A stretch of DNA of 36,996 bases. Origin: a virus (lineage: Duplodnaviria; Caudoviricetes). Positions 4,480 to 34,667 of this stretch are shown one piece after another (positions within the stretch are counted from its first letter, which is position 1; each line of letters opens with the position of its first letter). Under the pieces are notes generated by a model that searched no databases, had not been told where the DNA came from, and saw only the letters and a list, made by a program, of their open reading frames with translations. The stretch lies in the IMG/VR virus record IMGVR_UViG_3300017747_003884, positions 1-36,996 of that record. One strand, given 5' to 3'. Position numbers and translations under genes: made by a program.

Positions 4480-5801
4480 TGTCGTTTCCGCGATCCGCAC
4501 CATTCTCGGATTTTGGAGGGCGCGAAGGCGACGCGACTTCGGCAGCGTTCTTGCGCCACGTCGAGCGCGAGTTGTACGCTGTTGGCCAAACGTCTGCCGA
4601 GCCGCCGTTCGAGACGGTTACCGGGCCATGGGGGACGCAAATATCCCTCAACCGGGCGACGCTTGACTTGCGGCGTTTCCAACTGACCGAAGACCTGTCC
4701 GCGGGCAGTTCGGCAGAGGCGATTGTCCTTTACTATTCCGCCGAGAACGAAACGTGGGACGTGCCGGGGGAGACGTTCACGGTCTACGACTTCCTCAGCA
4801 GTTCCCGCGCCGGCGTCAAGATGCGGACGGGCGACAAGGGGCTAGCCAAATTCCATCCCGATTCGGCGTTGTGGGAACTGGTGGCGTCATCGCCGGGAAC
4901 CGGGTTTGACTCCGACTTCTTGCCAGCCAAGCTTACCGCTCGGACGATTCCATCAGCGACGTACATATACGAATGGGCAGAGCAGGAATTCCTGACCAAC
5001 GGGGCGAACGGTACCACCAAGTCTGGCGGGCGCAGCGGCACGGCGTCGGCATGGCCGGCGTATGAACTCAATAACCAATCTGTCGCGGTCGGAACCTACG
5101 TCTGGATGCGTCGCGGCTTCGAGGGAGATGCGGCCATCGTCAGCGTTACGCAGACCGCGGTTGGCAACAGCCTGGGAACTGCATCCGCGTGGTCTTTCTA
5201 CATCCGATACGCGACGGGCGGCACGTTCACGCTCACGCTTAACCGCGGCACGACATCAGCACTGGCCTACAACGCGAGCGGGGCGACGATCAAGACGGCA
5301 TTAGAGACGGCCAGCGGGCTTACGCTGTCATCGTTCAGCGGGGCGGGGACGCTTGCCAGCCCGTATACGTTCTCGGTCGCTGGGGGCGACTACGGGGTGT
5401 TTTTCTTGGCGGCGAATGCAAGTGGGTTGAAGGATGGCGGGGATTTTCGGTTTACCGCTTCGGACGGAAGTGTGATCGGCGCGTTTGGCTGGATCCCTAC
5501 AGACGTAGGGGACAGCGGCACCCCGTACCCCATTCTCGATAGTTGGGAATGTCACGTCGTGCTCAACACTGGCAACGTAACGCTTACGCTTCCCCCTTCG
5601 CCAGCATCTACTTATAAGGGCTTGCGATTGCGAGTAATCGGCGTTGATTTGAACGGCTATACGATCACCGTTGACGCATACCCTTCCGGTGGCTCGCCAC
5701 AAACCATCAACGGGGCCAATCCGTACACCATCTCGACAGATTGGGTCATGCACGAATTCGTTTACATTTCCGATATCTATGGATGGGCGGCGTTCTCGTA
5801 G
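4476..5801 (+). CDS. Putative tail tip/fibre protein
   Basis: 441 aa Gly/Ser/Thr-rich; C-terminal 'VTLTLPP...ITVDA...QTING' module common in phage tail proteins. Confidence 0.6.
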   Translation: MMSFPRSAPFSDFGGREGDATSAAFLRHVERELYAVGQTSAEPPFETVTGPWGTQISLNRATLDLRRFQLTEDLSAGSSAEAIVLYYSAENETWDVPGETFTVYDFLSSSRAGVKMRTGDKGLAKFHPDSALWELVASSPGTGFDSDFLPAKLTARTIPSATYIYEWAEQEFLTNGANGTTKSGGRSGTASAWPAYELNNQSVAVGTYVWMRRGFEGDAAIVSVTQTAVGNSLGTASAWSFYIRYATGGTFTLTLNRGTTSALAYNASGATIKTALETASGLTLSSFSGAGTLASPYTFSVAGGDYGVFFLAANASGLKDGGDFRFTASDGSVIGAFGWIPTDVGDSGTPYPILDSWECHVVLNTGNVTLTLPPSPASTYKGLRLRVIGVDLNGYTITVDAYPSGGSPQTINGANPYTISTDWVMHEFVYISDIYGWAAFS

Positions 5802-5808
5802 TTTTCCA

Positions 5809-6132
5809 CTACCTCTTAGAGATAACCATCAGCAGCATCGCCCACAAACAGAACACGAACAGCCCCACGAAGACCGCCAAATACGCCGCTGGCATGACTT
5901 TTTTGAATTGAACCGCATAAATGCCAAGCCCAAGCCCAGCGACGCCAAGAAACAACCCAGGGCAGGCGCATGCGTCGAAAAGCATCCGGGGCAGGCCGAT
6001 TGATGTCAGAAATGAAAGGCCCGATACGGCAATGAGTCCCAGGGCGATGAAGTCGAGGCGTTTGTAAATCACGGGGCACCGCGGGTTTGCGACATCGGTT
6101 TTCAAGTGCCAATCGTACTCCCGCCGCTCCAT
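5809..6132 (-). CDS. Small multi-pass membrane protein (moron-like, opposite strand)
   Basis: 107 aa with about 3 hydrophobic segments; AGGA upstream; convergent on the tail gene. Confidence 0.6.
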   Translation of the reverse strand: MERREYDWHLKTDVANPRCPVIYKRLDFIALGLIAVSGLSFLTSIGLPRMLFDACACPGLFLGVAGLGLGIYAVQFKKVMPAAYLAVFVGLFVFCLWAMLLMVISKR

Positions 6133-6239
6133 CGCGGCAATTCAATTCCTGCGCAACGCTCCTCAAGACGCTGAACGCCGGGACGGGGCCGTAACTCTGC
6201 TTTGCAATAATTGATGCGTCGTGTAAACTTGCGAGATCG

Positions 6240-6280
6240 AAAAAGAAACGGACCACGGGTGTCAAACCGGGTCCGTTTCT
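6240..6280 (-). terminator. Intrinsic terminator-like hairpin
   Basis: 11-bp inverted repeat AGAAACGGACC (6244-6254)/GGTCCGTTTCT (6270-6280) followed by a T-run on the - strand. Confidence 0.65.
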
Positions 6281-6382
6281 GAAAAGCAAAACATCAGCGA
6301 GCATCTTACCGCGAAGCACGGAAGAGTTCAATGCTTGCACACTTTTCAGAAATCATTTCTTTTTCGATGTGACCAACAGAGT

Positions 6383-6737
6383 CCATCGAACCGATGGCCC
6401 AAATTGTCCGCAGCAATGCGGAGCGGTTTTGCCCCCTTGAACTCACCGCAGCCCAAAGGCTCAGGGGTGAATGAGAACGCGCCGGGTTAAAAGCTCCCCG
6501 GCTTGTCTGGACGGGATTCCACGGATGAATCTCGGTGTGCGGCTGAAATCCTGGCAACGCGCTGGTGATAGATCCAGCATCGGGCATGCGCCCAGGTCGT
6601 TTCCCGGTTAAACCGGGCCTCACAGCACTAAGGCCACGCACCGCCCAGAGACAGGCGTTTAATCGATTCGGGAATACCGGGAAGCAATACCCTTCATCCA
6701 TACGGTGAGGCCAAGGGAATGCCCCGCTGTCGGCATT
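6383..6737 (+). ncRNA. Candidate large structured ncRNA, family unassigned
   Basis: Numerous hairpins, a GCAA tetraloop, long-range helices with G-U pairs favouring the + strand, no credible ORF. Confidence 0.6.
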
Positions 6738-6766
6738 GAAAGAATTCGCCCTATTCCCAACCCCCT

Positions 6767-6795
6767 TTGACCTAATTTCGCCACCCGGCTATCAT
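6767..6795 (+). promoter_or_regulatory. Sigma70-type promoter
   Basis: TTGACC-N17-TATCAT upstream of the 6842 gene. Confidence 0.7.
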
Positions 6796-6841
6796 CAACC
6801 CATCGTCGCCAACCTCCGGGGGGAGGAACGGGGCGTGATTC

Positions 6842-7933
6842 TTGCCAGCGTACAGCGGTCTTCTCTGGTCAAACGCGGGCCTCGGCGTCCTCTCCCGCCA
6901 GTCGTGCGCCGCCGTTGTCGGCGAAGCCTGCACCTTCGACTTCACGCATTACAGCGGCACGGTCGATGTGACCGGCTGGACCCTAAAAGCCACCCTCTCC
7001 TCATATCCCGCCGAAGGACTCGTCAAGTCGTGGACCGATTCCAGTTTCAGCAACAAGACCAGCAGCGGCGCCTTTCGGCTGACCACAGCGGCGACCGATA
7101 CCGAACTGCTCGCATCCCGCGCCTGGGTCTTGGAAGTTCGCCGCGTCAATAGCTCGGCGGAAACGGTCCTCACTCGCATTTACTGGACGTTGTCCGACTC
7201 CGCATCGTTCGATTCCATTCCGGTCAGCAATGCGACGCTCCAAGACCTTGCGCACGGCGGCACCGAGGCGAACTTGTCGGCAGCGGGGCCGGGTGCGGTC
7301 ATCCAATCCAGCACGGGCGGGGCGATGTCGGTTGTCTCTTACGCGACGTTTGCCGGGCTGATTTCGGGCACGTATCAACCCTTCGACGCCGACCTGGCCG
7401 CCATCTCTGCCCTCAGCGGCACGGACACGCTCTACTACCGCTCGGGCGCCAATACCTGGTCCGCGGTCACGTTTAGCGGATGCACGTTCTCGGGCGGGGC
7501 GCTGACGGTTTCGGCGCCTGCAAGCGGAAGCATCACGTCCGCGATGTTGCGAGACTCGGCGGCACATTCGGTTATCGGGCGAAGCGCAAACTCTGTCGGG
7601 GCGCCTGCCGACATCGTTGCTCCCCCTGGCGTCGTAAGTATGCTTGTCTGCCAAAACGGCAACATTGTCGGGTTTACCTCCCCTCCGTATGTGGAGGGAA
7701 ATTCCGTTCTCGGTGCGTACCCTTATTTCAACAACCAAACAAGCACCCTCGTATGGCAGCCGTGCCTCTTCATCTACGCACTCGCCAACGGCACCATTGA
7801 GCCGGACGACTCCCTGCTCGACATCAGCAAGGCCGTGATGTGGCTCGACCCGACCGAGGGCGCGGCAAAGATCAAATTCAAAGCCTACGACGACGCCGGC
7901 AACCTCGTCCGTGCGTCGATCAACCTTACCTAA
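6842..7933 (+). CDS. Tail fibre/baseplate-associated structural protein (start uncertain, TTG)
   Basis: N-terminal Ig-like/BppU-like pattern 'VDVTGWTLKATL'; fibre-like 'YQPFDADLAAIS' and 'SITSAML' motifs. Confidence 0.6.
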   Translation: MPAYSGLLWSNAGLGVLSRQSCAAVVGEACTFDFTHYSGTVDVTGWTLKATLSSYPAEGLVKSWTDSSFSNKTSSGAFRLTTAATDTELLASRAWVLEVRRVNSSAETVLTRIYWTLSDSASFDSIPVSNATLQDLAHGGTEANLSAAGPGAVIQSSTGGAMSVVSYATFAGLISGTYQPFDADLAAISALSGTDTLYYRSGANTWSAVTFSGCTFSGGALTVSAPASGSITSAMLRDSAAHSVIGRSANSVGAPADIVAPPGVVSMLVCQNGNIVGFTSPPYVEGNSVLGAYPYFNNQTSTLVWQPCLFIYALANGTIEPDDSLLDISKAVMWLDPTEGAAKIKFKAYDDAGNLVRASINLT

Positions 7934-8486: not shown

Positions 8487-8506
8487 TAACTGGCGACATT
8501 TTAACC

Positions 8507-8536
8507 ATTGACCTGTCAATATTTGACCGATAGGGT
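8507..8536 (+). promoter_or_regulatory. Promoter with overlapping palindromic operator
   Basis: TTGACC(8508)-N17-TAGGGT; palindrome ATTGAC-CT-GTCAAT at 8507-8520. Confidence 0.55.
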
Positions 8537-8553
8537 ATCGGAAAGGAATCACG

Positions 8554-8880
8554 ATGTTCGGCGAATTCGATTGGCTTGCGGCGGCTGACCGAGTGGGGTT
8601 TTCCCCGGTTGCGTATGCGGGCCTCGCGTTCGCGCTGTGGGCCACGATCAAATGGATTGCGGCCAATCTCGTGATGCCGGTGCGCGACCGGGCTTTCAGG
8701 TTTTTGGACAAACTTGAAAGCAACGTGGACAGCATGAGCGATAATCTCGATCAGCAGACAACGACGCTGAAAGAGATCCACGGCACGCAGATCGATGTTC
8801 AGCGGTCGATGAAAATGATTGCGGATCAAGGATGTGGGATTCGCGTGCGGAATGGCGTCGATCACGGGGAGCGGGGATGA
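8554..8880 (+). CDS. Holin-like protein (one TM plus coiled coil)
   Basis: AAGGA RBS; TM 'VAYAGLAFALWATIKWI' then a heptad-rich tail; lysis position. Confidence 0.5.
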   Translation: MFGEFDWLAAADRVGFSPVAYAGLAFALWATIKWIAANLVMPVRDRAFRFLDKLESNVDSMSDNLDQQTTTLKEIHGTQIDVQRSMKMIADQGCGIRVRNGVDHGERG

Positions 8881-9698
8881 ACCGAATCAAAGCCTACGCC
8901 TGGCCCTCTGTTGTCGCCGCCGCTCTGGCGGTTTCGCTGGGCCTCAGTGCGTGGAACACAATCCGCCCCGCCCCGTCGCCAACTCCCCCCGCTCCCATTC
9001 CCGCTCCGCTCGTCGAACCGACCGACGATAACCCGCTGATTGTCCCCGCTGAAATCACGCTCCCCGATCGCGGAATGATCCGGCTGCCGCTCAAGACTTT
9101 GGGCACGGTTCGCATTGTGCTCTATCCTGGCACGGACAAGGTTTTGCAGGTTGAGCAGTTCGGCGTTGACGTGATGTTGGCGCGGCGGTCGCAGGTTGCT
9201 GAGGATGTCAGCCTGGGATTGCAGGTCGAGCATAAGGGTAAGGTTTCGCCGGTCGTTTGGGTGTTGGTGCGGCTGAATCTCGCGCCGCTGCCGCCGCCGA
9301 CGCCTGAACCGGAACCGGCGCCCAAACCGAAGCCTGAGCCGACCCCGGTCCCAATCAAAGCCGATGGGCTTCGCGTCCTGATCATCTACGAAAGTTCCGA
9401 CTCTCAAGACGCCAAAAGCGTAATTTTCAGCACGAAGGTTCGCCAATTCCTCAATGAAAAGTGCGTCAAGGACGGAAAGCAACCGGAATGGCGGCAGTAT
9501 GATCAGGATCTCAAGCCGGAAGACCTCGCGGACGAATCAACCATCTGGCGAGAGGCGATGACCCGCACCAGGCCGAGGCTTGGCCCAGGCGAGCAATGGC
9601 TTATCGTCAGCAACGGCAAGGCCGGATTTGAGGGGAAGATGCCCACGAAAGACCCCGATGAACTGATCGCGTTCATTTCCAAGTTCGAGGGCCGGTAA
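8877..9698 (+). CDS. Membrane-anchored/secreted protein with Pro-rich linkers and a C-terminal alpha/beta domain
   Basis: N-terminal hydrophobic helix, PAPSPTPP and PEPEPAPKPKPEP linkers; coupled to the protease gene. Confidence 0.65.
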   Translation: MNRIKAYAWPSVVAAALAVSLGLSAWNTIRPAPSPTPPAPIPAPLVEPTDDNPLIVPAEITLPDRGMIRLPLKTLGTVRIVLYPGTDKVLQVEQFGVDVMLARRSQVAEDVSLGLQVEHKGKVSPVVWVLVRLNLAPLPPPTPEPEPAPKPKPEPTPVPIKADGLRVLIIYESSDSQDAKSVIFSTKVRQFLNEKCVKDGKQPEWRQYDQDLKPEDLADESTIWREAMTRTRPRLGPGEQWLIVSNGKAGFEGKMPTKDPDELIAFISKFEGR

Positions 9699-10543
9699 TG
9701 CTTTCGCCAAACGATATTGTCATTGACGACAGCAACGCGAATCTGTTCGTGCGGCCGAACTCCGGGCTCATTCAGCGAGATTTCTCCGCGCAGCCGCTCG
9801 GATGCATGGCGAACGTGCCAGCGATGTCGAGATCAACCTACGACCGGGCAACATGGCCCGAACGCATTCGCGATGCCGAAGCGAGCAAAACGCGGCTCAG
9901 CGACATTGCCGAGATCGGAAACTACGGCCAGCCGATTCCCCCCATGTGGCAAGACGGCTACGGATTCTGTTGGAATCATTCCTTCGTGGCCGGTGTGCAA
10001 CTCGCGTTCGCGATCAGCAACCTACCCTACGTTCGCCTGTCAGCCTTTGCTGGCGCCTGCCTCATCAAGGGATATCGCAACGTCGGCGGCATGAGCATCG
10101 ACGCGGCGCAGTTCGCGGCTGAAAATGGCGTGGCGTCTGCCGAGTTTTGGCCCCAACCCGAATACGAGTGGACCCAAGCGCAAATCAACGCTTGCGTTAA
10201 TCGCAAGTGGGACACACCAGCGATGCGAGCGAACGCCAAGAAACGGGCTTTGCTCGAATACGAAGACGTTCCGCACACGCTCGATCACATGTTCACAAAC
10301 CTCTTTGATCGGCGGCCAACCACAGGCGAATTCTCGTGGTGGGGGCATTCGGTCCTGCAGCTCGACCCGGTCGAAGTCGATCCGTCGAAGGATCTCATGG
10401 ACCCGCGGCGGTGGGGCGTGCGAATCCTGAACTCGCACGGGCCGAATAGCGGCACCAACGGGCGCCTTGTACTGGTCGGCGCCAAAGGTTTGGCCGATTG
10501 GGGCGGGGTGGCGATCAAGAATGTTCGCCCATCATCCAACTAA
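9698..10543 (+). CDS. Papain-like cysteine peptidase (C1 family-like)
   Basis: Q-D-G-Y-G-F-C-W, WWGHSV and ILNSHG give Gln/Cys/His/Asn in catalytic order. Confidence 0.8.
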   Translation: MLSPNDIVIDDSNANLFVRPNSGLIQRDFSAQPLGCMANVPAMSRSTYDRATWPERIRDAEASKTRLSDIAEIGNYGQPIPPMWQDGYGFCWNHSFVAGVQLAFAISNLPYVRLSAFAGACLIKGYRNVGGMSIDAAQFAAENGVASAEFWPQPEYEWTQAQINACVNRKWDTPAMRANAKKRALLEYEDVPHTLDHMFTNLFDRRPTTGEFSWWGHSVLQLDPVEVDPSKDLMDPRRWGVRILNSHGPNSGTNGRLVLVGAKGLADWGGVAIKNVRPSSN

Positions 10544-10554
10544 AGGAGTGACCG

Positions 10555-10866
10555 ATGATTGCATTGCTTTTCGCGGTGTTTCTGGGCGTGCCGCCGTATC
10601 CGGCGCCACCGACAGTATCGCCCCCGGTTCTGAAATCGGAAACTGCTTGCAAGTGCGGCGACTCGTGCCCCTGCAAATCGAAAGCCGCCACCCCGAAAGG
10701 CACCGGAACCCCCGTCACGTTCACCGACGGCACGCCAGGTCTGCGGCACGCCGACGGCTCCTACAGCGTGTTGCAAAACGTCGGGGCTTCCGCGCAAACG
10801 CCGACGAATGGCGGCGGCTGCTACATCAACGCGAACGGGCAGAAGGTTTGCCCGCTGAAACGGTAA
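10555..10866 (+). CDS. Secreted Cys-rich small protein
   Basis: AAGGAG RBS; signal-like N-term; CKCGDSCPC and C-terminal CY...CP. Confidence 0.65.
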   Translation: MIALLFAVFLGVPPYPAPPTVSPPVLKSETACKCGDSCPCKSKAATPKGTGTPVTFTDGTPGLRHADGSYSVLQNVGASAQTPTNGGGCYINANGQKVCPLKR

Positions 10867-10902
10867 GCGATCGACTCATTTTACCTAAAGGGATTTAATT
10901 TT

Positions 10903-11025
10903 ATGTCTCGCGAAATCACGACACACAAGGTCAACGGCTGCAACGAAAAGCTCCGCGTATGGGCGAGTGACGAGCCGGGGAATGGCGGCGCCCACCATGT
11001 CTATACCATTGACCCAAAACTTTAA
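10903..11025 (+). pseudogene. Truncated Tad1-like anti-defence sponge fragment (40 aa)
   Basis: MSREITTHKVNGCNEKLRVWASDEPGNGGAHHVYTIDPKL* resembles the Tad1 N-terminus (EGPGGAYHEYVI-type motif). Confidence 0.6.
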
Positions 11026-11055
11026 GTCACCAACTACTTTCCAAAGGAAACTACT

Positions 11056-11403
11056 ATGCCCGGTCCATTCTCCCCCAACCTCGCCCAACTCGATTGGAAC
11101 AAAATCTCCGGTCACATCACCGGCATCGTCGCCGAAGTCGCCCGCACGACGCCCTCGCCGCTTGACGACATCGCCGTGGGCTATCTCGCCCAGACGGTAA
11201 CCGAATGGCTCAAGGTTCGTGTCCAGCAGTCCCAGGCGCACGAAGAGACTCCGCACATGGTTTTCGCTGCGGTCAGCGATCAAGCCGATGAAGCGTTCTT
11301 CGCCGAAGCTCTCGCGCGGAAGGGAAAAATCCTCTCGCCGGAATTGCTGTCGCTGCTGGTGACGGTTGGCAAGTTCGTCCTGCCGTTGCTGCTGGCGTTG
11401 TAA
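11056..11403 (+). CDS. Hypothetical protein with C-terminal hydrophobic helix
   Basis: AAGGA RBS; 115 aa. Confidence 0.65.
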   Translation: MPGPFSPNLAQLDWNKISGHITGIVAEVARTTPSPLDDIAVGYLAQTVTEWLKVRVQQSQAHEETPHMVFAAVSDQADEAFFAEALARKGKILSPELLSLLVTVGKFVLPLLLAL

Positions 11404-11563
11404 ACCATTGCCGCGGTCCTGGGGCAAGATCCGTTTGGAACTTCGCGGCGGATCTTCTCGGTTCGATTCCGGGCGCGGCACATTTACGGAAGCAAGACGC
11501 CCCCGAAGCCGTGGTGCGGCTGGCATGACGCCGGCGGGGGCTTTGTACTCTGAGGCACTTGAA

Positions 11564-18053: not shown

Positions 18054-18283
18054 CAGGCGCCGCCTTTCGTTTCCGGCATCACACGGACCTCGACCATTTC
18101 GAGACCCCGAATCTTTCGGGGCAAATCTTTCAAAGCAAGCACGTTGCCGTTCATCAACAGGCCTCGCACTCCGTCGATGGCTTGCTTTTCGATTTGCTCC
18201 CATGACGTGTCGCTGCCCCAAACTGAGCCAGCCTCAACGTCCATCGTGACACGAACAACCGCTCGTAAACGCTTCTCAGGCAT
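18053..18283 (-). CDS. Hypothetical protein
   Basis: TGATG-coupled start; ends TKGGA*. Confidence 0.6.
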   Translation of the reverse strand: MPEKRLRAVVRVTMDVEAGSVWGSDTSWEQIEKQAIDGVRGLLMNGNVLALKDLPRKIRGLEMVEVRVMPETKGGA

Positions 18284-19278
18284 CACGCACCGCCTTTCGG
18301 AGTCTCGCGAACCTGTAGATCCTTGGCCCATTCGGCCATGTCGCCGCCGTGGGAGTCTCGCGGGAAGATATGCGAGTGGTTGTTGTCGCCGCTGAAATAA
18401 CTCTTGCCGAGTTGCTTAACAAACACCGGCACGTTCGTCGCCTTGCACTGCCGCACGATGTTGCGAATCCATTCGACGTTGCACGGCCTGGCTCCGGGGC
18501 CGCTCTCGCCGCCGATGATGACCCAGTTTGGCTTGCCGTACTTCTCCCAGATCGGAATCGCGTCGATTGGTCCCAGCAGCGGTTCGGCCGACCAGAAGCG
18601 AATTGCGGCGGGAACGCTCATGAGATGTTTGTGCCGGAGTTCGGCCTGCTCTTGGTTCTCGACGGACGTGCCGAGCCAGACATTGGGGCGAATGCCGCCA
18701 GGACAACCGACTTCGTCACACGATGCGCGTTTGTGGTCGCAATCGTGATCGCGAAACTTCGGCATCATCTTCGCGATGTTCTCCGGCCGCTTCGTGAGCA
18801 GGAGCCAGTCGAGGTTCGGCGTGGCGTCAATCAGGCGGAAGAGGCGGGTGCGAACGTCGTCCATGGTGAGCCGATCATCAGGACCGCGACTCGCCCGAAA
18901 GTCTTTGCCAAGGTAAATCTCATCCTTGCCAGAAGCTCGCATCGTCCCCGTCCAATCCTCGAACACGTCGGCCAGCGACGCGCAGAAGATGCGGGGGCGT
19001 TCCGGCGGTGGAGGCGGGTTGTACGGGGCTCCTTGATGCCCCGAAAGCCACACATCCATTGCTGCCTTGGCTGCTTTGTCCCACTTCAACGGCAACTTCC
19101 AAGCGTCCTCGGCCGCCACGACCCGCGTGCCGTTCGGCCCCCAAACACCAAGCGTCTTCGGGTTGCGCTTGCTGAGCGTGTCAGCGTAGCAGCTGGCGCA
19201 GCCGGGGTTCACCTTCTGGCATCCTCGCCATGGGTTGAACGTGTGAGTCGTCCATTGGATCTTTGTGTTCTCAGCCAT
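18283..19278 (-). CDS. DUF5131 / phage gp37Gp68 family (radical-SAM-like)
   Basis: TKIQWT..TFNPW.GC.KV.PGC..CYA; LLLTKRPEN; NVWLGTSVENQ; SAEPLLG; WVIIGGESG. Confidence 0.9.
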   Translation of the reverse strand: MAENTKIQWTTHTFNPWRGCQKVNPGCASCYADTLSKRNPKTLGVWGPNGTRVVAAEDAWKLPLKWDKAAKAAMDVWLSGHQGAPYNPPPPPERPRIFCASLADVFEDWTGTMRASGKDEIYLGKDFRASRGPDDRLTMDDVRTRLFRLIDATPNLDWLLLTKRPENIAKMMPKFRDHDCDHKRASCDEVGCPGGIRPNVWLGTSVENQEQAELRHKHLMSVPAAIRFWSAEPLLGPIDAIPIWEKYGKPNWVIIGGESGPGARPCNVEWIRNIVRQCKATNVPVFVKQLGKSYFSGDNNHSHIFPRDSHGGDMAEWAKDLQVRETPKGGA

Positions 19279-19350
19279 TGACGGACTTCCTTTCTTCGAT
19301 GAGTTCACGTTCGCGTGCTTCTAAGTCTTCGTCATAGATCACAATGAACA

Positions 19351-20853: not shown

Positions 20854-22146
20854 TTACTCCTGGTTGGGGGAAACGGAAAGAAAATCCATCACTGAGCGAA
20901 TAAAGACGGCGGCTACTTGGGGGACGATGGCGTTGCCATAGCCTTTGAGTCGGCCAGCGCGATTTCGGCCAGCCATCGCGAGTAGGCTTCGCGGTCGCCG
21001 GAGCATTCGCTTAACTTCTTTTGGACCGTATCCCATTCCTTCCAGAATGGTGCGTGTTGGTCCCATGTCGCGGGGAATCCCATGAGCCAGCGGGAAAACG
21101 CCGCGTCCAATACGCCGCGATTTTCCGTCGAGGCAGGGAATGATTTCGTAATCGCTCCAAGGTCGCAATACGCCATCGCTTGCATTTGCAAGTCCGACAG
21201 GCAAACTCCCATCGTCGACCCCTTCGCAATCGCCTTCCTTTTCCGCTCCAAAAACGCTTCCGGCGTTCCGTTCGCGGGTTCGCAAACCGGCGTCGCCCAG
21301 CCAGCCATCGGTTCGTTCTTCGACGGCCGCAGGCCCATCGCCGCTTCCACTTGCCGGCTGTAGTCGCAGTTCCCGGCGCCCGGCGTCTGAGCCATCGGCG
21401 TCGCCCAGCCTGTCAACTGTGCTGCGATCGCCAACCCGCCCTGCTTGCTCGCGGGGCCGCCGTTCGTCTTTCCCTTGCGGGACTCGTACCCACGCTGCCG
21501 GGCCGCTTCGTATTGCTCCAACGTCCTGCCGTCCTCTTGGGCCTTTGGCGACGGCCAGCCCGCCATGTCCAAAATCTCCGACGCCTGCTTCAATTTCGTG
21601 ATGTTGCTCCGATTGGAATGCCCAGGCGGAATCTTGCCCCCGGTCGTGTCGGAAGTTGTCGGCGACGGCCACCCAATACAGTCTTTGGCGGATGTGCGGC
21701 GCCCCTGCGCTGTGTGCTCCCAATACACACGACCCAACGGCGTAGCCCTCTCCTTCCAAGTCTCCTGATATTCGATCGAGCCACCCATGCTTTCTAATTG
21801 CGTTCGGCACTTGCTCGCCAAAAACGACGTTAGGGCGGCACTCTCGGATGAGCCGGAAGAACTCGGGCCAGAGATCGCGGGCGTCGGCTTCGCCTTTGTT
21901 TTTGCCGGCCACCGAGAACGGTTGGCATGGGGCCGATCCTGTCCAGACCGGCCACTCGTCGGGCCATCCGGCAAGGTGCAAGGCAAATTCCCATCCCGCA
22001 ACGCCGGCGAAGAAATGACATCGTCGAAAATCTCGAACATCGGTTGCAGCAACATCCGTGATACTCCGTGTGTCGATCCGTTGACCGGGGAACATGTTGG
22101 CGAGCCAGTCGGCGGCGTAGGGCTCGAATTCGTTGAAATAGATCAT
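20854..22146 (-). CDS. C5-cytosine DNA methyltransferase, alpha chain (motif IX absent)
   Basis: FFAGVAG, GSAPCQPFS, EQV, HIRQRLYWV and GYGNAIV motifs. Confidence 0.9.
   Translation of the reverse strand: MIYFNEFEPYAADWLANMFPGQRIDTRSITDVAATDVRDFRRCHFFAGVAGWEFALHLAGWPDEWPVWTGSAPCQPFSVAGKNKGEADARDLWPEFFRLIRECRPNVVFGEQVPNAIRKHGWLDRISGDLEGEGYAVGSCVLGAHSAGAPHIRQRLYWVAVADNFRHDRGQDSAWAFQSEQHHEIEAGVGDFGHGGLAVAKGPRGRQDVGAIRSGPAAWVRVPQGKDERRPREQAGRVGDRSTVDRLGDADGSDAGRRELRLQPASGSGDGPAAVEERTDGWLGDAGLRTRERNAGSVFGAEKEGDCEGVDDGSLPVGLANASDGVLRPWSDYEIIPCLDGKSRRIGRGVFPLAHGIPRDMGPTRTILEGMGYGPKEVKRMLRRPRSLLAMAGRNRAGRLKGYGNAIVPQVAAVFIRSVMDFLSVSPNQE
20913..22055 (-). CDS. Nested alternative-frame ORF: putative beta chain of the C5-MTase
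   Basis: 380-aa +1 frame ORF with four GW(P/A)(S/T)P repeats and motif IX-like 'FSRWLMGFPATW'. Confidence 0.7.
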   Translation of the reverse strand: MLLQPMFEIFDDVISSPALRDGNLPCTLPDGPTSGRSGQDRPHANRSRWPAKTKAKPTPAISGPSSSGSSESAALTSFLASKCRTQLESMGGSIEYQETWKERATPLGRVYWEHTAQGRRTSAKDCIGWPSPTTSDTTGGKIPPGHSNRSNITKLKQASEILDMAGWPSPKAQEDGRTLEQYEAARQRGYESRKGKTNGGPASKQGGLAIAAQLTGWATPMAQTPGAGNCDYSRQVEAAMGLRPSKNEPMAGWATPVCEPANGTPEAFLERKRKAIAKGSTMGVCLSDLQMQAMAYCDLGAITKSFPASTENRGVLDAAFSRWLMGFPATWDQHAPFWKEWDTVQKKLSECSGDREAYSRWLAEIALADSKAMATPSSPK

Positions 22147-22178
22147 GCTTCCTGCCCGGAAAGAAAATCCATCACTCG

Positions 22179-23663
22179 TTAAACAGCCTTCCTCGCCGCA
22201 GCGAGAAACAGCGACTCTTGTTCGTTGGTGTCAGCCTGCACTCGGCCCGCCTTGCGGATGACCGATTCGACCATGGGCATTTCAATCTCGGTCACTGGAA
22301 TATGCACGTTGAGCGGTCGCGTTGAGCCGATGCGGTTTGAACGCTTCACCGCTTGATAATAGGACTCGTAACTGTCGAGTAGACCGCTGAAAATCTGCCG
22401 CGTCGCGACTTGGAGATTAAGGCCGAACCCGAGCACCTTCGCTTTAGAGATCAGAACGCGGCGGCGGCCGGCTTTGAAATCGTCGATGAGTGTTTCGCGT
22501 TTCGCCAGGGGCGTTGATCCGTCGATGTTCGCCGCATCGGGGAATATCTTCGCCAGCCCGTCTTGCTCCTCATTGCGAATGCACCAGATGATTGTTGATT
22601 CATCCGGCCACGATTCCACAAGCGCCTTGATGAATCCCGGCTTTTGCGAACCGACGCCATCCAGCCCTTTGCCGATCGCCGAGAGTTTCGACCGCTTCAC
22701 GATGCCGCCAGCGTTCGTAACGAACAGTTCACCCGTCGCCGTGAAAACTGCGTCACGCTGTCCCTGCGTCATTTCCACGTCGTGAATGTGCGTGATGATC
22801 GGCGGAATCTTGCCGGCGTTGTCTTTCCAGCCGTAGGTTTCCGGGTTCGCCAGGAAGAACGACCAATGCGACAACGCCCGGTAAAACGGCTTGATTGCAT
22901 GCGGCTTCAAAACCCATCGCTCTTGCGTCTGGCCGCGGTTCACGAAGTACCTCGCCAAGAATGCGTTGATCGTCGGGAATGCGTCAAGGAATACGGCATG
23001 GTTCGCGTACTCGATGCGGTCATTCGGGGCCGGCGTTCCGGTGAGACACAGTTTCCAATCGAGACCGGCTCCGAGATCGAGGCAGACTTGCCCCCATTTG
23101 CCGTAATGGCTCTTAAGAATCGATGACTCGTCAAGGATGAGGCAGCCCAACGCCCCTTGCTTGAGATCGTCAGTCAGGGCGTCATAGTTCGTGATGCCCA
23201 GCCGGTTGCCGTCGCCCTTAAGCCACCCCGCGAGATCGGCCGCGGAAACCTGCTCGATATCAAGGCGCCCTTCGTAAAACTTGGCGGCTTCGGCGATGGT
23301 TTGGCGAACGACCATCAGCGGGCACACAATCAAGATTCGTTTGTGCATCGGCAAGACTTTCGCCGCGTGCCGCATGAACTCCAAGAGCATCAGCGTTTTG
23401 CCAAGTCCGCAATCCGCGAAGATCGCGAACTTGCGTTTCTGAATCGCCATCGCTGCGATATCTCGCTGATAATCGAATAGCCCCGGCCACGGCTTGTACG
23501 CGACATTCTTCACCGCTTGCGCCGCGGCCCCGTCGATCAGGTGCGCGTACTCGTCGGGGAATGACATCTCCCGCCCGGTGCATCTGAATGACGGCAGAGA
23601 CTTGACCGCCAGGAACTTCCGGTAATCGTCAATGCTCGACGGGTTGACAGCGACTCGCATCAC
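22179..23663 (-). CDS. SF2 (SNF2-like) helicase
   Basis: DCGLGKT, LILDESS, LTGTPAPND, GFGLNLQ and QAVKRSNRIG. Confidence 0.9.
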   Translation of the reverse strand: MMRVAVNPSSIDDYRKFLAVKSLPSFRCTGREMSFPDEYAHLIDGAAAQAVKNVAYKPWPGLFDYQRDIAAMAIQKRKFAIFADCGLGKTLMLLEFMRHAAKVLPMHKRILIVCPLMVVRQTIAEAAKFYEGRLDIEQVSAADLAGWLKGDGNRLGITNYDALTDDLKQGALGCLILDESSILKSHYGKWGQVCLDLGAGLDWKLCLTGTPAPNDRIEYANHAVFLDAFPTINAFLARYFVNRGQTQERWVLKPHAIKPFYRALSHWSFFLANPETYGWKDNAGKIPPIITHIHDVEMTQGQRDAVFTATGELFVTNAGGIVKRSKLSAIGKGLDGVGSQKPGFIKALVESWPDESTIIWCIRNEEQDGLAKIFPDAANIDGSTPLAKRETLIDDFKAGRRRVLISKAKVLGFGLNLQVATRQIFSGLLDSYESYYQAVKRSNRIGSTRPLNVHIPVTEIEMPMVESVIRKAGRVQADTNEQESLFLAAARKAV

Positions 23664-24547
23664 GACACCTCCGCAAAAAGGGCTTGTTCGGTTTCCGTGT
23701 GCAGCGTTCGAGCGTGTTCAAGGTTTTTGATCGCCGCATCATAGTATTCGCTTTTCAACTCAGTGCCGTAGAATCGGCGGCCGAGTTTCAAAGCCTCGTA
23801 TCCCTCGCTGCCGATGCCGGCGAACGGGGAAAAAACAATCTCGCCGGGGTTCGAGTACAGGCGGATGAGCCGATTGATGACTTGCAGTTGCAACGGGCAA
23901 ATGTGCTTTGTGTCGTCTTCGCCGCGGCCTTCCTTGACGTTGAGGGTGTCGGTCTCGCGAATGTCCGTCCAGCACGCTTCCGCCCAATCGATCCAGTTAT
24001 TTCGCGACACGTCACCCTTTGAGCGGATCGGGACCGCGTTATCGCCAGCAACGCGGAACTTGAGCAAGTAATCGGGCAAGCAGCCGCGGGACTTGGCGCG
24101 GTCAGATTCCAGCCCCGAAAACTGCAATTCCCGGCTGCGTGTGCGGATCGCTTGGGCTTGCGGGTTTTTGCGGATGCACCAATCGTACTCGAACACTAAC
24201 CCGGCACGCTCGCCGAGGCGGATGTTGAGTCCGCGGAAGTCGTACAGCCCCACTTCGCCGCTTCGCTTCATGCGGGGGATTTGCATGACGTGAACGACAA
24301 TCACACGGCCAGGCTTCACGACGCGGGCAAGCTGCCGGTAGAAGAACGACAAGTGCAACTTCGCTTCACCGCGAAGATCCTCACTGTTGCCGATATCCGC
24401 TTCCTGCGACGTGTACGCATAGAGCGACGGAAACGGCGGGGAGAACACCGAGAAATCAAAGCACGCTTCCGGCATCTCGGCCATGTGCGTGATGCAGTCG
24501 GTGTTCACCAGTTTGTAATCGCGTCCATCCAGCATTGAAAACTCCAT
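23660..24547 (-). CDS. N4/N6 amino DNA methyltransferase (beta class)
   Basis: FSPPF catalytic motif before the SPFAGIGSEG SAM motif; KHICPLQ. Confidence 0.9.
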   Translation of the reverse strand: MEFSMLDGRDYKLVNTDCITHMAEMPEACFDFSVFSPPFPSLYAYTSQEADIGNSEDLRGEAKLHLSFFYRQLARVVKPGRVIVVHVMQIPRMKRSGEVGLYDFRGLNIRLGERAGLVFEYDWCIRKNPQAQAIRTRSRELQFSGLESDRAKSRGCLPDYLLKFRVAGDNAVPIRSKGDVSRNNWIDWAEACWTDIRETDTLNVKEGRGEDDTKHICPLQLQVINRLIRLYSNPGEIVFSPFAGIGSEGYEALKLGRRFYGTELKSEYYDAAIKNLEHARTLHTETEQALFAEVS

Positions 24548-26999: not shown

Positions 27000-27518
27000 C
27001 TACTGCGTCTTGAGCTTTGAAAGTATCGCTCTGGCTTCCTGGTGGGTTTTTGTGCCTTGCATTTGGGCCTTCAATTCTTGGCATCTCGCCCGCTCCGCAA
27101 TCTCCCGCTGCCGATCCTCAACAAGCCGCTGCCGTGTCGGGTCCAGCGTTCGATACTGGCCATTCAGGAACATCCGCTCTTCGTGCTCGCGAAGGCGCTG
27201 AACAACCAATTGATCCACCAAGGGGTAGATTAGATTCCAGATTCGGGTAAGTTCGGCGGGGTCGATGGCCGATAAGCCATGGGTGAATTCGTGGCAGGGC
27301 TTGCACAAGCCTTGAAGGTCTTCAAGGCGCTCACTGTACTTGCGCTGGTAGGTGAGATGATGGACGTGGTCGATGCGATGAATGCAGCACCGCTCGCAAA
27401 CCCCGCCAGCCCGTTCATGAACGGCCTTTTTCAGAACACCCCACTCGCGGGAGCACAAATACGCAGCGTACTTCTCGCGGTCGTCGGCAATCATTAACCA
27501 ATCAACCATGACATCCAA
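27000..27518 (-). CDS. HNH endonuclease-like protein
   Basis: Y..YL.S.EW...CERC...HVHHLTY...E...DL.GLCKPCH. Confidence 0.8.
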   Translation of the reverse strand: MDVMVDWLMIADDREKYAAYLCSREWGVLKKAVHERAGGVCERCCIHRIDHVHHLTYQRKYSERLEDLQGLCKPCHEFTHGLSAIDPAELTRIWNLIYPLVDQLVVQRLREHEERMFLNGQYRTLDPTRQRLVEDRQREIAERARCQELKAQMQGTKTHQEARAILSKLKTQ

Positions 27519-27825
27519 CCCTCATCCTAAAGCATCCACACCAACAACATGCCGGTAGATCGAAAGTAACTCTGTCTACTGCCGCAAGCCCGCTGGTCCT
27601 CACCAGTCGGGCTCACGGACAACACACTCGGCAATTGATTTAACGCATGGTACACCAACCTTTTCGTATGTTCGCCGCATTGGGCCACTTCGGACGGTTT
27701 CAACGCCGTTCGAGTGGTTCATTTGATGCCGCAAGCCCGGCGACTGGTCTCCCAGGCAGGGCTGCGGCTTCATCAAGGAAGCAATCAATATTCAGACTTA
27801 GGCCTGCCCGGACGCAGGCCCAAAG

Positions 27826-28149
27826 CTAACCGTACTCCGATGCGGACCTCTCAGGCCGCCGCCGGGAAGTTAGTGGCCGTTGTTGGGCCGGACAAAAAAC
27901 GCCGTCAATCGGAAGAGGTTCCGGCTTCGCGATCAACAGCAGGCAAAACTTGAGCATATCAGTTGTCTTGATTTCTCCCCCGGCAACCGTCCCCTCCAAC
28001 GCGAAGGGGATCAGCTCCGGGCGTTCACCGTTCTCGTTGAAGCCGATAGATGGTTGCGACCCCCAAATACGTGCTCACTTCCCAACCAGGATGAACGGCG
28101 TTTTTCGGTTACTCGAAAAACTGATCGAGAGCGTTGCGTTGATCTTCAT
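27826..28149 (-). pseudogene. 107-codon ORF with an in-frame TGA at codon 25
   Basis: GAGG RBS, ATG 28149; the frame continues 82 codons after TGA (28075-28077). Confidence 0.35.
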
Positions 28150-28274
28150 GGCGACCTCTGTGTATCCGCCCCGGCCCGGACCACCCGGACGCGGGGCTTC
28201 TGACGGTATCGCTTGGTCACTGAACCTTTTCCAGCGACCCCTTTGCTCCACAATCGCAACAACGGCTGACGTTG

Positions 28275-29808: not shown

Positions 29809-30085
29809 GATTGGCGCCCGCTTCGACTAGCTCGCACCTCCGCGGCCGCTGACTTGATGGAGGTATCGGCAACCCGTCCTGAATCTCTTCGTCCGTCGCC
29901 CCATCCGTTCGCCCGCGCAAGTAATCGAGAACCGCCCGCCGCAGGGTCGCCGCTTTGGGCTCGATCTCTTTCGCCGCCGCGACCGAGGTTACCGAATGCC
30001 GCTGGGCGGGAGGCTCGGGAGACAGTTGGTTTGTGGGGGTCGATGACCAGTCGGGGCGGAATTCGGGGAATAAAAGTTGGGTCAT
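29762..30085 (-). CDS. Winged-HTH DNA-binding protein
   Basis: TS.AAA...VLDYL...GATDEEI...RPRRCELVEAG. Confidence 0.65.
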   Translation of the reverse strand: MTQLLFPEFRPDWSSTPTNQLSPEPPAQRHSVTSVAAAKEIEPKAATLRRAVLDYLRGRTDGATDEEIQDGLPIPPSSQRPRRCELVEAGANRETGRKGVHRERVEV

Positions 30086-31194
30086 GGCGTCGCCTCCAAG
30101 CATTCATCAAACAGCGGCATTTCGTAATCCGGCATTTCCCGCAACTCATCGGCGGCTGTGTATCGGGTCGGATAAACGGAATCTTGCCAGCACTGGCGGA
30201 TAAACGCTTCGTCCTCTTCGCGGATCAGCGTGACGCCCGACCTGCACTGAATGTCCATCACCCAATCAAACAGTTTCTTGCGGGCATCCATTCGCAGAGC
30301 CCCGTAGTAGTTCCTGCCATCGGGCTTAACCTTGACGATCCGGTTGTGCGGCTTCCGGGCTTCGTGCCACACGGCGTACAACTCGTTGAGCGGGCTCCCG
30401 GCGCCATTTCGTTTGACCACGTTCTTCGGCGCGATCGCGGATTCTTCAATCGCCGGGCATCCTTGGCATCCGAACCGCGCGACCGCCTCGACTCGGACAT
30501 CGCCATCGAAATCCGGCTGGCCGTATTTGACATCGTAAATTTCGACAAGTTTTCTCGTGACCGCAAAAACGTCTTGCATCAGTTCGGCGTCTTCGCGGCC
30601 AATGGCACCGTTGAGCCAGTCGATAACCTGGCACGTTCGCCAATTGATGATCGGGCTGTATGTGCCGCCGTCAGCGTCTGGAATGCCACACTCGCCGCCC
30701 GCTTCGCATCCCGCCTTGAGCAGCTTCCCGTCTCGTTGTTGCGACTCGCCCCAGCGTAATCCGGTTAGCGTCACGCCCCTGGCATTCACGTCGCGCCAGC
30801 GCTGCATGGGGTCTTTTTTGGTGGAGCGGCTGCACCATCGGAAGTTCTTGATGCCGGGGTGGATCGGCGGCAGTCCGCGCCCAAGAATTTGGCAATAAAG
30901 CCGCTCGTTGACTTCGGGACGAACAACCGCAAATTCCCAACCGCAACCGCCGAGAACGTCAAGCAGTTCCCCCGAGATCGCTTGCAGGGAAGCGTCTTCT
31001 ACCATCGTGTCTGACTGCACCAATTTCGGATTCTTGGCCGTGACCCAACCAGACCGACGAAGCCATTCGATTAGCGTAATCATCGCTGATGAGTCTTTCC
31101 CGCCGCTGAACGCTCCGCACCAATCGCCAGACAAAACAGCGAGCAATTCGGCAGAGGGGAAATAGAACGGCTTCTGTGCGATGGCTGAGATCAC
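30082..31194 (-). CDS. PAPS reductase family / DndC-like protein
   Basis: FSGGKDS, SDT, RWCS..K.DP, GLRWGES.QR, PIINW and RFGCQGCP. Confidence 0.85.
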   Translation of the reverse strand: MISAIAQKPFYFPSAELLAVLSGDWCGAFSGGKDSSAMITLIEWLRRSGWVTAKNPKLVQSDTMVEDASLQAISGELLDVLGGCGWEFAVVRPEVNERLYCQILGRGLPPIHPGIKNFRWCSRSTKKDPMQRWRDVNARGVTLTGLRWGESQQRDGKLLKAGCEAGGECGIPDADGGTYSPIINWRTCQVIDWLNGAIGREDAELMQDVFAVTRKLVEIYDVKYGQPDFDGDVRVEAVARFGCQGCPAIEESAIAPKNVVKRNGAGSPLNELYAVWHEARKPHNRIVKVKPDGRNYYGALRMDARKKLFDWVMDIQCRSGVTLIREEDEAFIRQCWQDSVYPTRYTAADELREMPDYEMPLFDECLEATP

Positions 31195-34535: not shown

Positions 34536-34584
34536 AGTGCTACGGGCACGCCGGATATCTAGGCCGACGTGCTTTCATCGAAAT

Positions 34585-34661
34585 CGGGGCCGCCAGGACT
34601 CGAACCTGGACATTCGGGCGCCATCACGGCGATGCCTCTCTGCCGATTGAGTTACAGCCCC
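34585..34661 (-). tRNA. tRNA-like element with a degenerate anticodon arm (pseudo-tRNA)
   Basis: Acceptor GGGGCTG/CGGCCCC, D-loop AATCGGCA, T arm CCAGG-TTCGAGT-CCTGG; no canonical anticodon loop; no encoded CCA. Confidence 0.7.
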
Positions 34662-34667
34662 AGAGGC

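Follow-up and report, generated by a model that had tools for sequence, protein, structure and literature searches.

A discrete non-coding cassette beside phage tail genes, with a predicted long structured RNA and a predicted short antisense partner

The window analyzed here spans an entire linear phage contig (36,996 nt, roughly 56% of a complete genome), and within it positions 6193–6737 constitute a discrete, uncatalogued non-coding cassette. There is no Rfam match, no coding signal, and the block is 98% conserved between alleles, which together support the earlier proposal of an uncatalogued non-coding element here, although the element is larger than first called. We tentatively favor a reading in which the cassette makes two RNAs, a folded + strand non-coding RNA of ~505 nt and an antisense RNA of ~57 nt that sets its level, in a hok/Sok-like arrangement without the toxin peptide. 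Summed over all of the readings considered below, a real + strand non-coding RNA is probable. The preliminary description placed a ~355-nt structured RNA at 6383–6737; this segment is real as the 3′ two-thirds of the element, but its boundaries are too narrow, since the unit is 6193–6737 and a more strongly folded segment at 6236–6368 was missed. A length of about 505 nt is probable for the RNA, which has its own upstream promoter-like site and a predicted antisense partner.

The contig sequence is present in freshwater and lake sequencing runs. In an ORF scan the tail genes are on the + strand (with PHROG matches to a tail terminator and a major tail protein) and the replication genes are on the − strand. 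The two genes flanking the element, a tail gene of 441 aa ending at 5801 and a gene of 363 aa starting at 6842, are separated by 1,040 nt. The same slot contains a gene for a 107-aa hydrophobic protein, which has a single relative (86%), no Pfam or PHROG match, and Atlas look-alikes that are either unnamed or DUF proteins; it is unlinked to the cassette in the second allele described below, and this moron gene possibly acts in superinfection exclusion. The syntenic phage L122 lacks the cassette: just 185 nt separate its homologues of both flanking genes, and the sole ORF filling the gap (L122 12966–13118, + strand) codes for a 50-aa hydrophobic product. The position is thus a variable moron slot, and there are related phages that have no cassette at the equivalent slot. 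The preliminary description also proposed a fresh promoter downstream of the element, and one is indeed present at 6767–6795, scoring 10/12. We note by eye a 5-bp hairpin with a G4 loop (6813–6826) that sequesters what is likely the Shine-Dalgarno site of the gene at 6842.

The cassette is retained as a block in sequence run X2, which comes from lake sequence of another study and has 6193–6737 in two contigs with nine substitutions and one deleted base. The 98% identity compares with 92% in the neighboring genes, and the flanks have diverged, such that the match has loose ends on both sides, at 6193 and 6737. The nine changes in 545 nt differ from the 184 in 2292 bases seen in six listed X2 gene pieces over 8488–11481 (Fisher p = 2e-9), and from the 18 in 335 of the single X2 piece of the same depth (p = 0.004); this comparison is among the records listed (7/8), with the flanks known as 30-letter ends. 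The block edges are 9 nt upstream of the −35 element of the + strand promoter and at the last hairpin (6737). The high identity may reflect either selection or recent exchange, and from the sequence the edges fit the promoter and last hairpin either way. Six of the X2 changes are also in X3, in two low-depth 151-nt records, and a 93-aa gene call in a separate 2,100-nt JGI contig carries three matching residue changes. X1 is near-identical to the window and may be its sample of origin, and there are thus two alleles in total, that of the window and that of the X2, X3 and JGI type. The X1 contigs break at 6796–6827, and a 46-nt piece immediately left of the cassette (6149–6194) occurs alone in an X3 contig with other flanks.

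Table 1. Features of the cassette and its immediate surroundings
Feature	Coordinates	Strand	Basis
Hydrophobic, probably membrane, protein gene (107 aa)	5809–6132	−	codon score like real genes
Conserved moron-like cassette	6193–6737 (545 nt)	none	block conservation in run X2, absence in L122
Predicted sigma70-like promoter of long RNA (TTTGCA or TTGCAA, 17 or 16 nt, TAAACT)	6201–6229	+	8/12
5′ domain of long RNA	6236–6368	+	z −6.76; helices modelled
13-bp helix	6236–48/6356–68	+	fold model
Predicted ~57-nt antisense RNA (~15-nt U-rich single-stranded 5′ tail and terminator hairpin)	6238–6295	−	promoter and terminator
Intrinsic terminator (GC stem 6275–6249, then UUUCUUUU)	6240–6275	−	−14.3 kcal/mol
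Hairpin	6249–6275	+	fold model
11-bp helix	6276–86/6342–52	+	fold model
Open internal loop, predicted toehold for antisense 5′ tail	6287–6296	+	unpaired probability
Stem with hairpin 6304–6325	6297–6304/6331–38	+	fold model
Predicted antisense promoter (TTGAAC, 17 nt, TAAGAT)	6303–6331	−	8/12; start about 6295/6296
Predicted switch linker	6363–6397	+	alternative pairings, fold model
GNRA tetraloop hairpin, two G-U pairs	6401–6429	+	sequence, fold model
Multibranch core (284 nt), closed by 6434–39/6712–17 and 6442–48/6703–09	6434–6717	+	z −3.69
3′-terminal hairpin	6718–6737	+	fold model; X2 conservation stops at 6737
C-rich, G-poor unstructured tract, Rho-utilisation-site-like	6738–6817	+	34 C, 9 G in 80 nt

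None of the reading frames in the region behaves as a gene. All eight candidate ORFs have codon scores of −0.05 to −0.37, compared with +0.03 to +0.43 for the 23 real genes on which the score was itself trained. Conserved coding of the antisense ORF 6306–6701 (131 aa), raised in the preliminary description as a finding that would count against an RNA, is not supported. Six of the nine changes in this frame are non-synonymous, versus three of 16 in gene 8832–9698 and five of 11 in gene 8554–8880 (listed changes), its codon score is −0.17, and it has no Shine-Dalgarno site. The sister allele is the lone relative of the 93/131-aa ORF among 1.84 billion proteins. A gene caller does call the 93-aa frame (6306–6587) in two contigs. 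On the + strand a 26-aa ORF (6394–6474) and a 46-aa ORF (6471–6611) overlap by ATGA; their codon scores are −0.05 and −0.27, Shine-Dalgarno sites are weak or absent, neither has a Pfam or Atlas match, and none of the + frames within the long RNA encodes a hydrophobic helix.

The 5′ domain is the best-folding of 185 contig windows of 133 nt (on a grid placed on the domain), and it contains three of the seven perfect inverted repeats of at least 11 bp within 200 nt in the whole contig. The complete segment 6236–6741 also folds better than its shuffles (z −4.63 on the + strand). Folding on the − strand is almost as strong (z −6.00, and −4.26 for 6236–6741). Two features of the helices bear on the strand assignment. 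First, the 13-bp and 11-bp helices reach upstream of the antisense start, such that a longer RNA is needed to form them. Second, the 13-bp helix begins at the predicted + strand start, while on the − strand it overruns the U-tract by 4 nt, which favors the + strand. The open internal loop has an unpaired probability of 0.6–1.0 at all five transcript lengths modelled. The linker downstream has two predicted states: 6363–69 pairs with the 5′ arm, and with 6384–90 (p 0.95) when 6236–6295 is blocked. The second pairing opens the hairpin 6383–88/6392–97, which is present as previously described and forms with p 0.68 when free. A duplicated 5-mer and its complements (at 6244–6248, 6276–6280, 6348–6352 and 6356–6360) permit branch migration, and in the model the junction may move between three-way and four-way forms. 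The domain was also considered as a MITE, but it is single copy with no target duplication evident by eye.

The segment first described, 6383–6737, folds moderately well, with z −2.62 on the + strand (1/100 shuffles as good) and −1.43 on the − strand; seven of 37 control 355-nt windows of the contig reach z ≤ −2.6 (better strand, 12 shuffles each). The core within it is stronger, and 0/200 shuffles fold as well. Its two closing helices, already drawn in the preliminary description, have pair probabilities of 1.00 and 0.99, and the GNRA hairpin, the helix 6481–86/6497–6502 and the GCTGG/CCAGC and AATGCC/GGCATT pairings are all present. Other inner helices fare less well. The 12-position helix 6533–44/6632–43 exists with 11 of 12 pairs and one C-A mismatch, the GGATGAA/TTCATCC pairing as drawn gives way to 6465–71/6693–99 (p 0.93), and the CCCGGT/ACCGGG hairpin loses to a 10-bp helix at 6599–6608/6676–85 (p 0.99). 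Forcing both of the long inner helices originally drawn costs 10 kcal/mol (−134.9 vs −145.1), and forcing the 12-position helix alone costs 3.5 kcal/mol. The closing helices thus stand, but several inner helices are mutually alternative and the single nested fold does not hold. The inner topology is ambiguous between 6533–44/6632–43 and 6599–6608/6676–85, which together would form a pseudoknot. The + orientation, argued earlier from G-U polarity, is probably correct, as the G-U pairs and the retained GNRA loop favor it. We note that the RNA 3′ end (6732–6740) has three alternative partners (6327–6335, 6414–6419 and 6718–6723), which is reminiscent of how hok mRNA pairs at its ends. Inspection by eye suggests that the long-range pairing would gain one pair from the X2 change at 6326 in combination with the 3′ flank of X2, and that 5-bp matches to the loop 6724–31 are candidate kissing loops.

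The differences between the two alleles include no double compensatory changes. We relied on a symmetric test of pair compatibility, comparing the allele changes with 20000 random placements. Overall, eight of the nine changes are compatible, as are 2672/20000 random sets, which is weak. In the 5′ domain all five changes keep every pair (190/20000 random sets do so), with four at unpaired bases and one converting G-U to G-C. These changes cluster in the spacer of the antisense promoter, and promoter constraint could therefore mimic structural constraint. In 6383–6737 there are only four changes in 355 nt, of which three are compatible, and the result is null (16339/20000). One is the X2/X3 change at 6415, which converts the tetraloop from GCAA to GCGA and retains the GNRA pattern. 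The change at 6638 converts U-G to U-A in the 12-position helix, although this base is unpaired in the minimum free energy structure, and that at 6696 breaks one pair in either helix involving 6693–99. A one-directional mutation test (5′ domain 0/1000 on + and 27/1000 on −; overall 3/150 and 1/150) was set aside because it is biased, rewarding whichever allele is the more stable.

A relaxed promoter scan gave 45 entries contig-wide, and those within 5700–7000 are the downstream promoter at 6767–6795, the + strand site at 6201/6202–6229, the − strand site at 6331–6303, and one at 6140. Reading these as sigma70-type sites is an assumption about the host's sigma factor. The + strand site, at 8/12, is below the strict bar of 9/12, but its predicted start (6235/6236) falls where the 13-bp helix begins, a proximity seen in 26/2000 shuffles, and the site is unchanged in X2. 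The −10 of the antisense promoter is intact in X2, its spacer carries three changes and the final base of its −35 a fourth, and a promoter so placed arises by chance in 154/2000 shuffles (7.7%). The − strand terminator was missed by a bulge-free scan and is among 13 terminator-like entries contig-wide (two of which are the same site). The RNA predicted between these two elements folds at −22.9 kcal/mol with its 5′ tail free. The tail is complementary to 6281–6295, and within this target 6287–6295 is in an open loop at every modelled length. A role for the tail in blocking ribosome binding sites in trans was rejected, the best of 39 gene starts scoring −10.7 vs −22.5 in cis. A C-rich, G-poor unstructured tract is the expected make-up of a Rho site, and the C-G excess of the tract following the last hairpin is reached by 0.14% of 80-nt + strand windows (its own overlapping windows counted). 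The tract overlaps the promoter of the next gene and is not conserved in X2.

A simple scheme joins these observations. The cassette is conserved as one unit and has no coding signal; its + promoter would start the long RNA at ~6236, and Rho together with 3′ trimming would end it near the 6737 hairpin. The − promoter would make the short RNA, ending at its own terminator. The U-rich 5′ tail is predicted to seed on the open loop 6287–6296 and to unzip the 5′ domain, forming a ~57-bp duplex. Pairing of the first 60 bases in this way is predicted to re-pair the linker 6363–6397, with the core 6434–6717 keeping its fold; a modelled block of 6236–6295 leaves the core unchanged. By analogy with hok/Sok, RNase III would cut the duplex and the core would be the effector, in which case the antisense RNA would govern how much of the core accumulates or how it matures, and not its shape. 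As there is no toxin ORF and the core is predicted not to refold, the simplest model is one in which a non-coding effector is regulated in its amount or its maturation. The least supported part of the scheme is its job, which we infer from its location in a moron slot and by analogy to type I and type VIII systems: most likely this would be an RNA-only addiction or defence module, resembling a type VIII toxin-antitoxin, that retains the moron or prophage. A more specific form, in which a mobile protein-free module uses a Sok-like antisense RNA to gate a 284-nt, possibly pseudoknotted RNA acting as a toxin, defence effector or scaffold, is unlikely as it stands.

It is possible, if somewhat doubtful, that the ~505-nt RNA is instead a stand-alone orphan, a scaffold or self-assembling RNA like GOLLD, ROOL or manA, with the − promoter arising by chance and the terminator stopping − strand read-through from early genes. 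The folding, conservation and non-coding evidence apply equally, the shuffles show how often such an antisense promoter arises by chance, and RNAs of this type are known from phages and prophages, as described in the available part of PMC12286853. However, no GOLLD, ROOL, OLE, manA or other Rfam model matches, and the element is far from the contig's single tRNA (a tRNA-Arg(CCG) at 34584–34662 on the − strand). Such an orphan RNA also leaves unexplained why a terminator lies exactly over the first hairpin and why the open loop faces the tail.

A second alternative, that only the 5′ part functions (promoters, terminator and small RNA) and that the 355-nt part is moderately folding intergenic DNA recently co-exchanged with it, is distinctly unlikely. 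The control windows that match its z-score, the uninformative 3′ allele changes, the mutually exclusive inner helices and the failure to find a distant homologue are all consistent with it. What it does not accommodate is the z-score of the core, its two closing helices with p about 1, the stop in conservation at the last hairpin, the kept GNRA loop, and the paucity of changes in this part.

We regard as improbable a − strand transcript running from ~6740 to 6240 and ending at the terminator, serving either as an ncRNA or as mRNA for the 93/131-aa ORF (6306–6587/6701). The terminator is canonical on this strand, the − strand folding is good and the 93-aa frame has been called as a gene, but no − promoter was found to the right of 6737, where conservation stops, and 6193–6235, beyond the terminator, is unchanged. 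The excess of non-synonymous changes, the negative codon score, the lack of a Shine-Dalgarno site and the single protein relative argue against the mRNA.

Less probable again is a type I toxin-antitoxin system whose peptide is unusual, in which the antisense RNA would gate the 26-aa ORF and, through the ATGA overlap, the 46-aa ORF, as in mok/hok. The AUG at 6394 is indeed inside the hairpin that the predicted switch opens, but binding would free this AUG, which is the opposite of an antitoxin, and the ORFs have neither the hydrophobic helix, the codon scores nor the database matches to recommend them. A ColE1-like primer RNA with an antisense inhibitor, serving a secondary replication origin, would share the long structured ncRNA with a short convergent antisense over its 5′ end, but is highly improbable given that there is no RNAI match, the DNA after 6737 (the expected origin site) is not conserved, the phage has genes for DnaB and a loader-like protein, and no refolding of the core is predicted upon binding.

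Searches for known families and homologues support the uncatalogued status of the element. There is no match in the window at gathering level in Rfam 15, and sub-scans at E 10 gave chance matches or none, including two chance matches for 6225–6385, where no known antitoxin RNA model matches. Consistent with the preliminary description, there is no hallmark of a tRNA, tmRNA, RNase P or intron, with no model or ARAGORN match in the element. Several specific candidates were rejected: 6S RNA (no model match), GOLLD (RF02032; no match, with controls giving signals in 5/14 genomes, none over the cut-off), and ROOL (RF03087; no match at E 10, a single-family search also being empty but with silent controls). 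OLE and manA also have no Rfam model match. Group I introns (RF00028) gave no match (controls positive in 8/14), and the allele change at 6696 disrupts a P7-like pairing noted by eye at 6464–70/6694–99. Group II and ORF-less IIC introns (RF00029) gave no match (controls positive in 10/14), and the GNRA hairpin has no AGC triad; HEARO or omega RNA (RF02033) gave no match, with no IscB or TnpB among the nearby ORFs scanned. No reverse transcriptase (of retron, DRT or DGR type) is among the 54 ORFs scanned in this partial contig.

No homologue was found beyond the alleles described above. In IMG/VR, exact searches with a 15-mer (120 loci from 38/64 parts) and a 16-mer (119 loci from 54/64 parts) gave no locus that extended, and a two-loop gapped pattern gave ten loci, none fitting model R3. 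A 22-mer search of JGI metagenomes returned the window's own contig alone. Blastn against 50,697 phages found nothing beyond two 23-nt chance matches, and against 72,556 plasmids no homologue; five related phages searched as whole records with blastn and models R2 and R3 gave 14-nt chance matches alone. The g004–g005 gap of Cellulophaga phage phi14:2 gave 3.7 bits at best with R3 and nothing with R2, these single-sequence models being insensitive. Neighbor proteins used as queries in GTDB gave no locus, and the RNA searches thus covered phage, plasmid and metagenome sequence. A full-text literature search found no paper on the element. The candidates of Fremin 2023 are 29–151 nt long in the available part of the paper (PMC10690425); six motif strings are absent from the portion of its supplements searched, and a sub-domain may be among the candidates.

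Sok is a 64-nt RNA that combines a stem-loop with a 5′ tail, which is single-stranded and seeds on a loop, and RNase III scavenges the duplex (PMC1635323, available part). Plasmid R1's hok/Sok system resembles the arrangement predicted for the cassette in having a short cis-antisense RNA with a tail and terminator stem-loop (64 nt there, ~57 predicted here), a target loop close to the 5′ end of a long RNA whose ends are paired and which measures several hundred bases, and a 3′ hairpin as a road-block to trimming. The cassette differs in having no transmembrane toxin ORF or mok and no sequence or Rfam similarity, and in that its toehold is predicted to be open in the full-length RNA, most of which is multibranch core. 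SdsR is the shorter RNA of the SdsR/RyeA pair. In this type VIII system the mRNA-targeting sRNA SdsR is the toxin, according to the available parts of PMC8610362 and PMC10767807. As predicted for the cassette, two RNAs are on opposite strands at one locus with no protein toxin; unlike SdsR, the short RNA predicted here finds no good target in trans at any of 39 gene starts, and there is no Rfam match. The type VIII definition would fit the cassette on paper only.

ColE1 RNA II is about 555 nt and RNA I about 108 nt. The predicted long RNA of the cassette is of similar size to RNA II and would have a convergent antisense over its 5′ end, but the cassette has no RNAI match or conserved downstream origin, its antisense RNA is shorter with one hairpin, and its core has no predicted long-range refolding. 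GOLLD, ROOL and OLE (PMC12286853) and the manA cages (bioRxiv 10.64898/2026.07.01.735769) are, in the available parts of these sources, large, multibranch, protein-free phage RNAs of unknown function, and share these properties with the long RNA predicted here. GOLLD and ROOL are also alike in size and setting. The cassette differs in having no model match and in not being beside tRNAs, and no antisense partner is mentioned in those parts.

Other regions of the contig also have features of interest. A second strongly folded, gene-poor region is at 27520–27900, in the gap 27519–28274 beside an HNH gene (27000–27518), with z −4.29 on the − strand and, for 27500–27854, z −5.95 on the + strand (12 shuffles). 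Two related hairpins near 27581 and 27729 share an 11-nt motif, and Rfam gives a sub-threshold BcKCsr2 match alone (17 bits). This region is a candidate for a second ncRNA or a regulatory leader. The segment 500–855 has z −4.04 on the + strand over the start of gene 558–983, and there is a − strand terminator-like site at 518. A PAPS-reductase-like gene (30082–31194), a DUF5131 gene (18283–19308) and DNA methyltransferase/helicase genes (20854–24547) suggest a DNA-modification module.

Orphan phage RNAs of the GOLLD and ROOL types have structures but no known function. If the long RNA described here carries its own antisense off-switch, then its excess must cost the cell, and the antisense promoter would be a built-in handle for probing that cost. 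The cassette is 545 bp, is protein-free and has sigma70-like promoters, and could be cloned whole into a laboratory strain. If the RNA-only effector is correct, it would represent a toxin-antitoxin or anti-phage system built around a large structured RNA as effector and distinct from SdsR/RyeA and CreTA.
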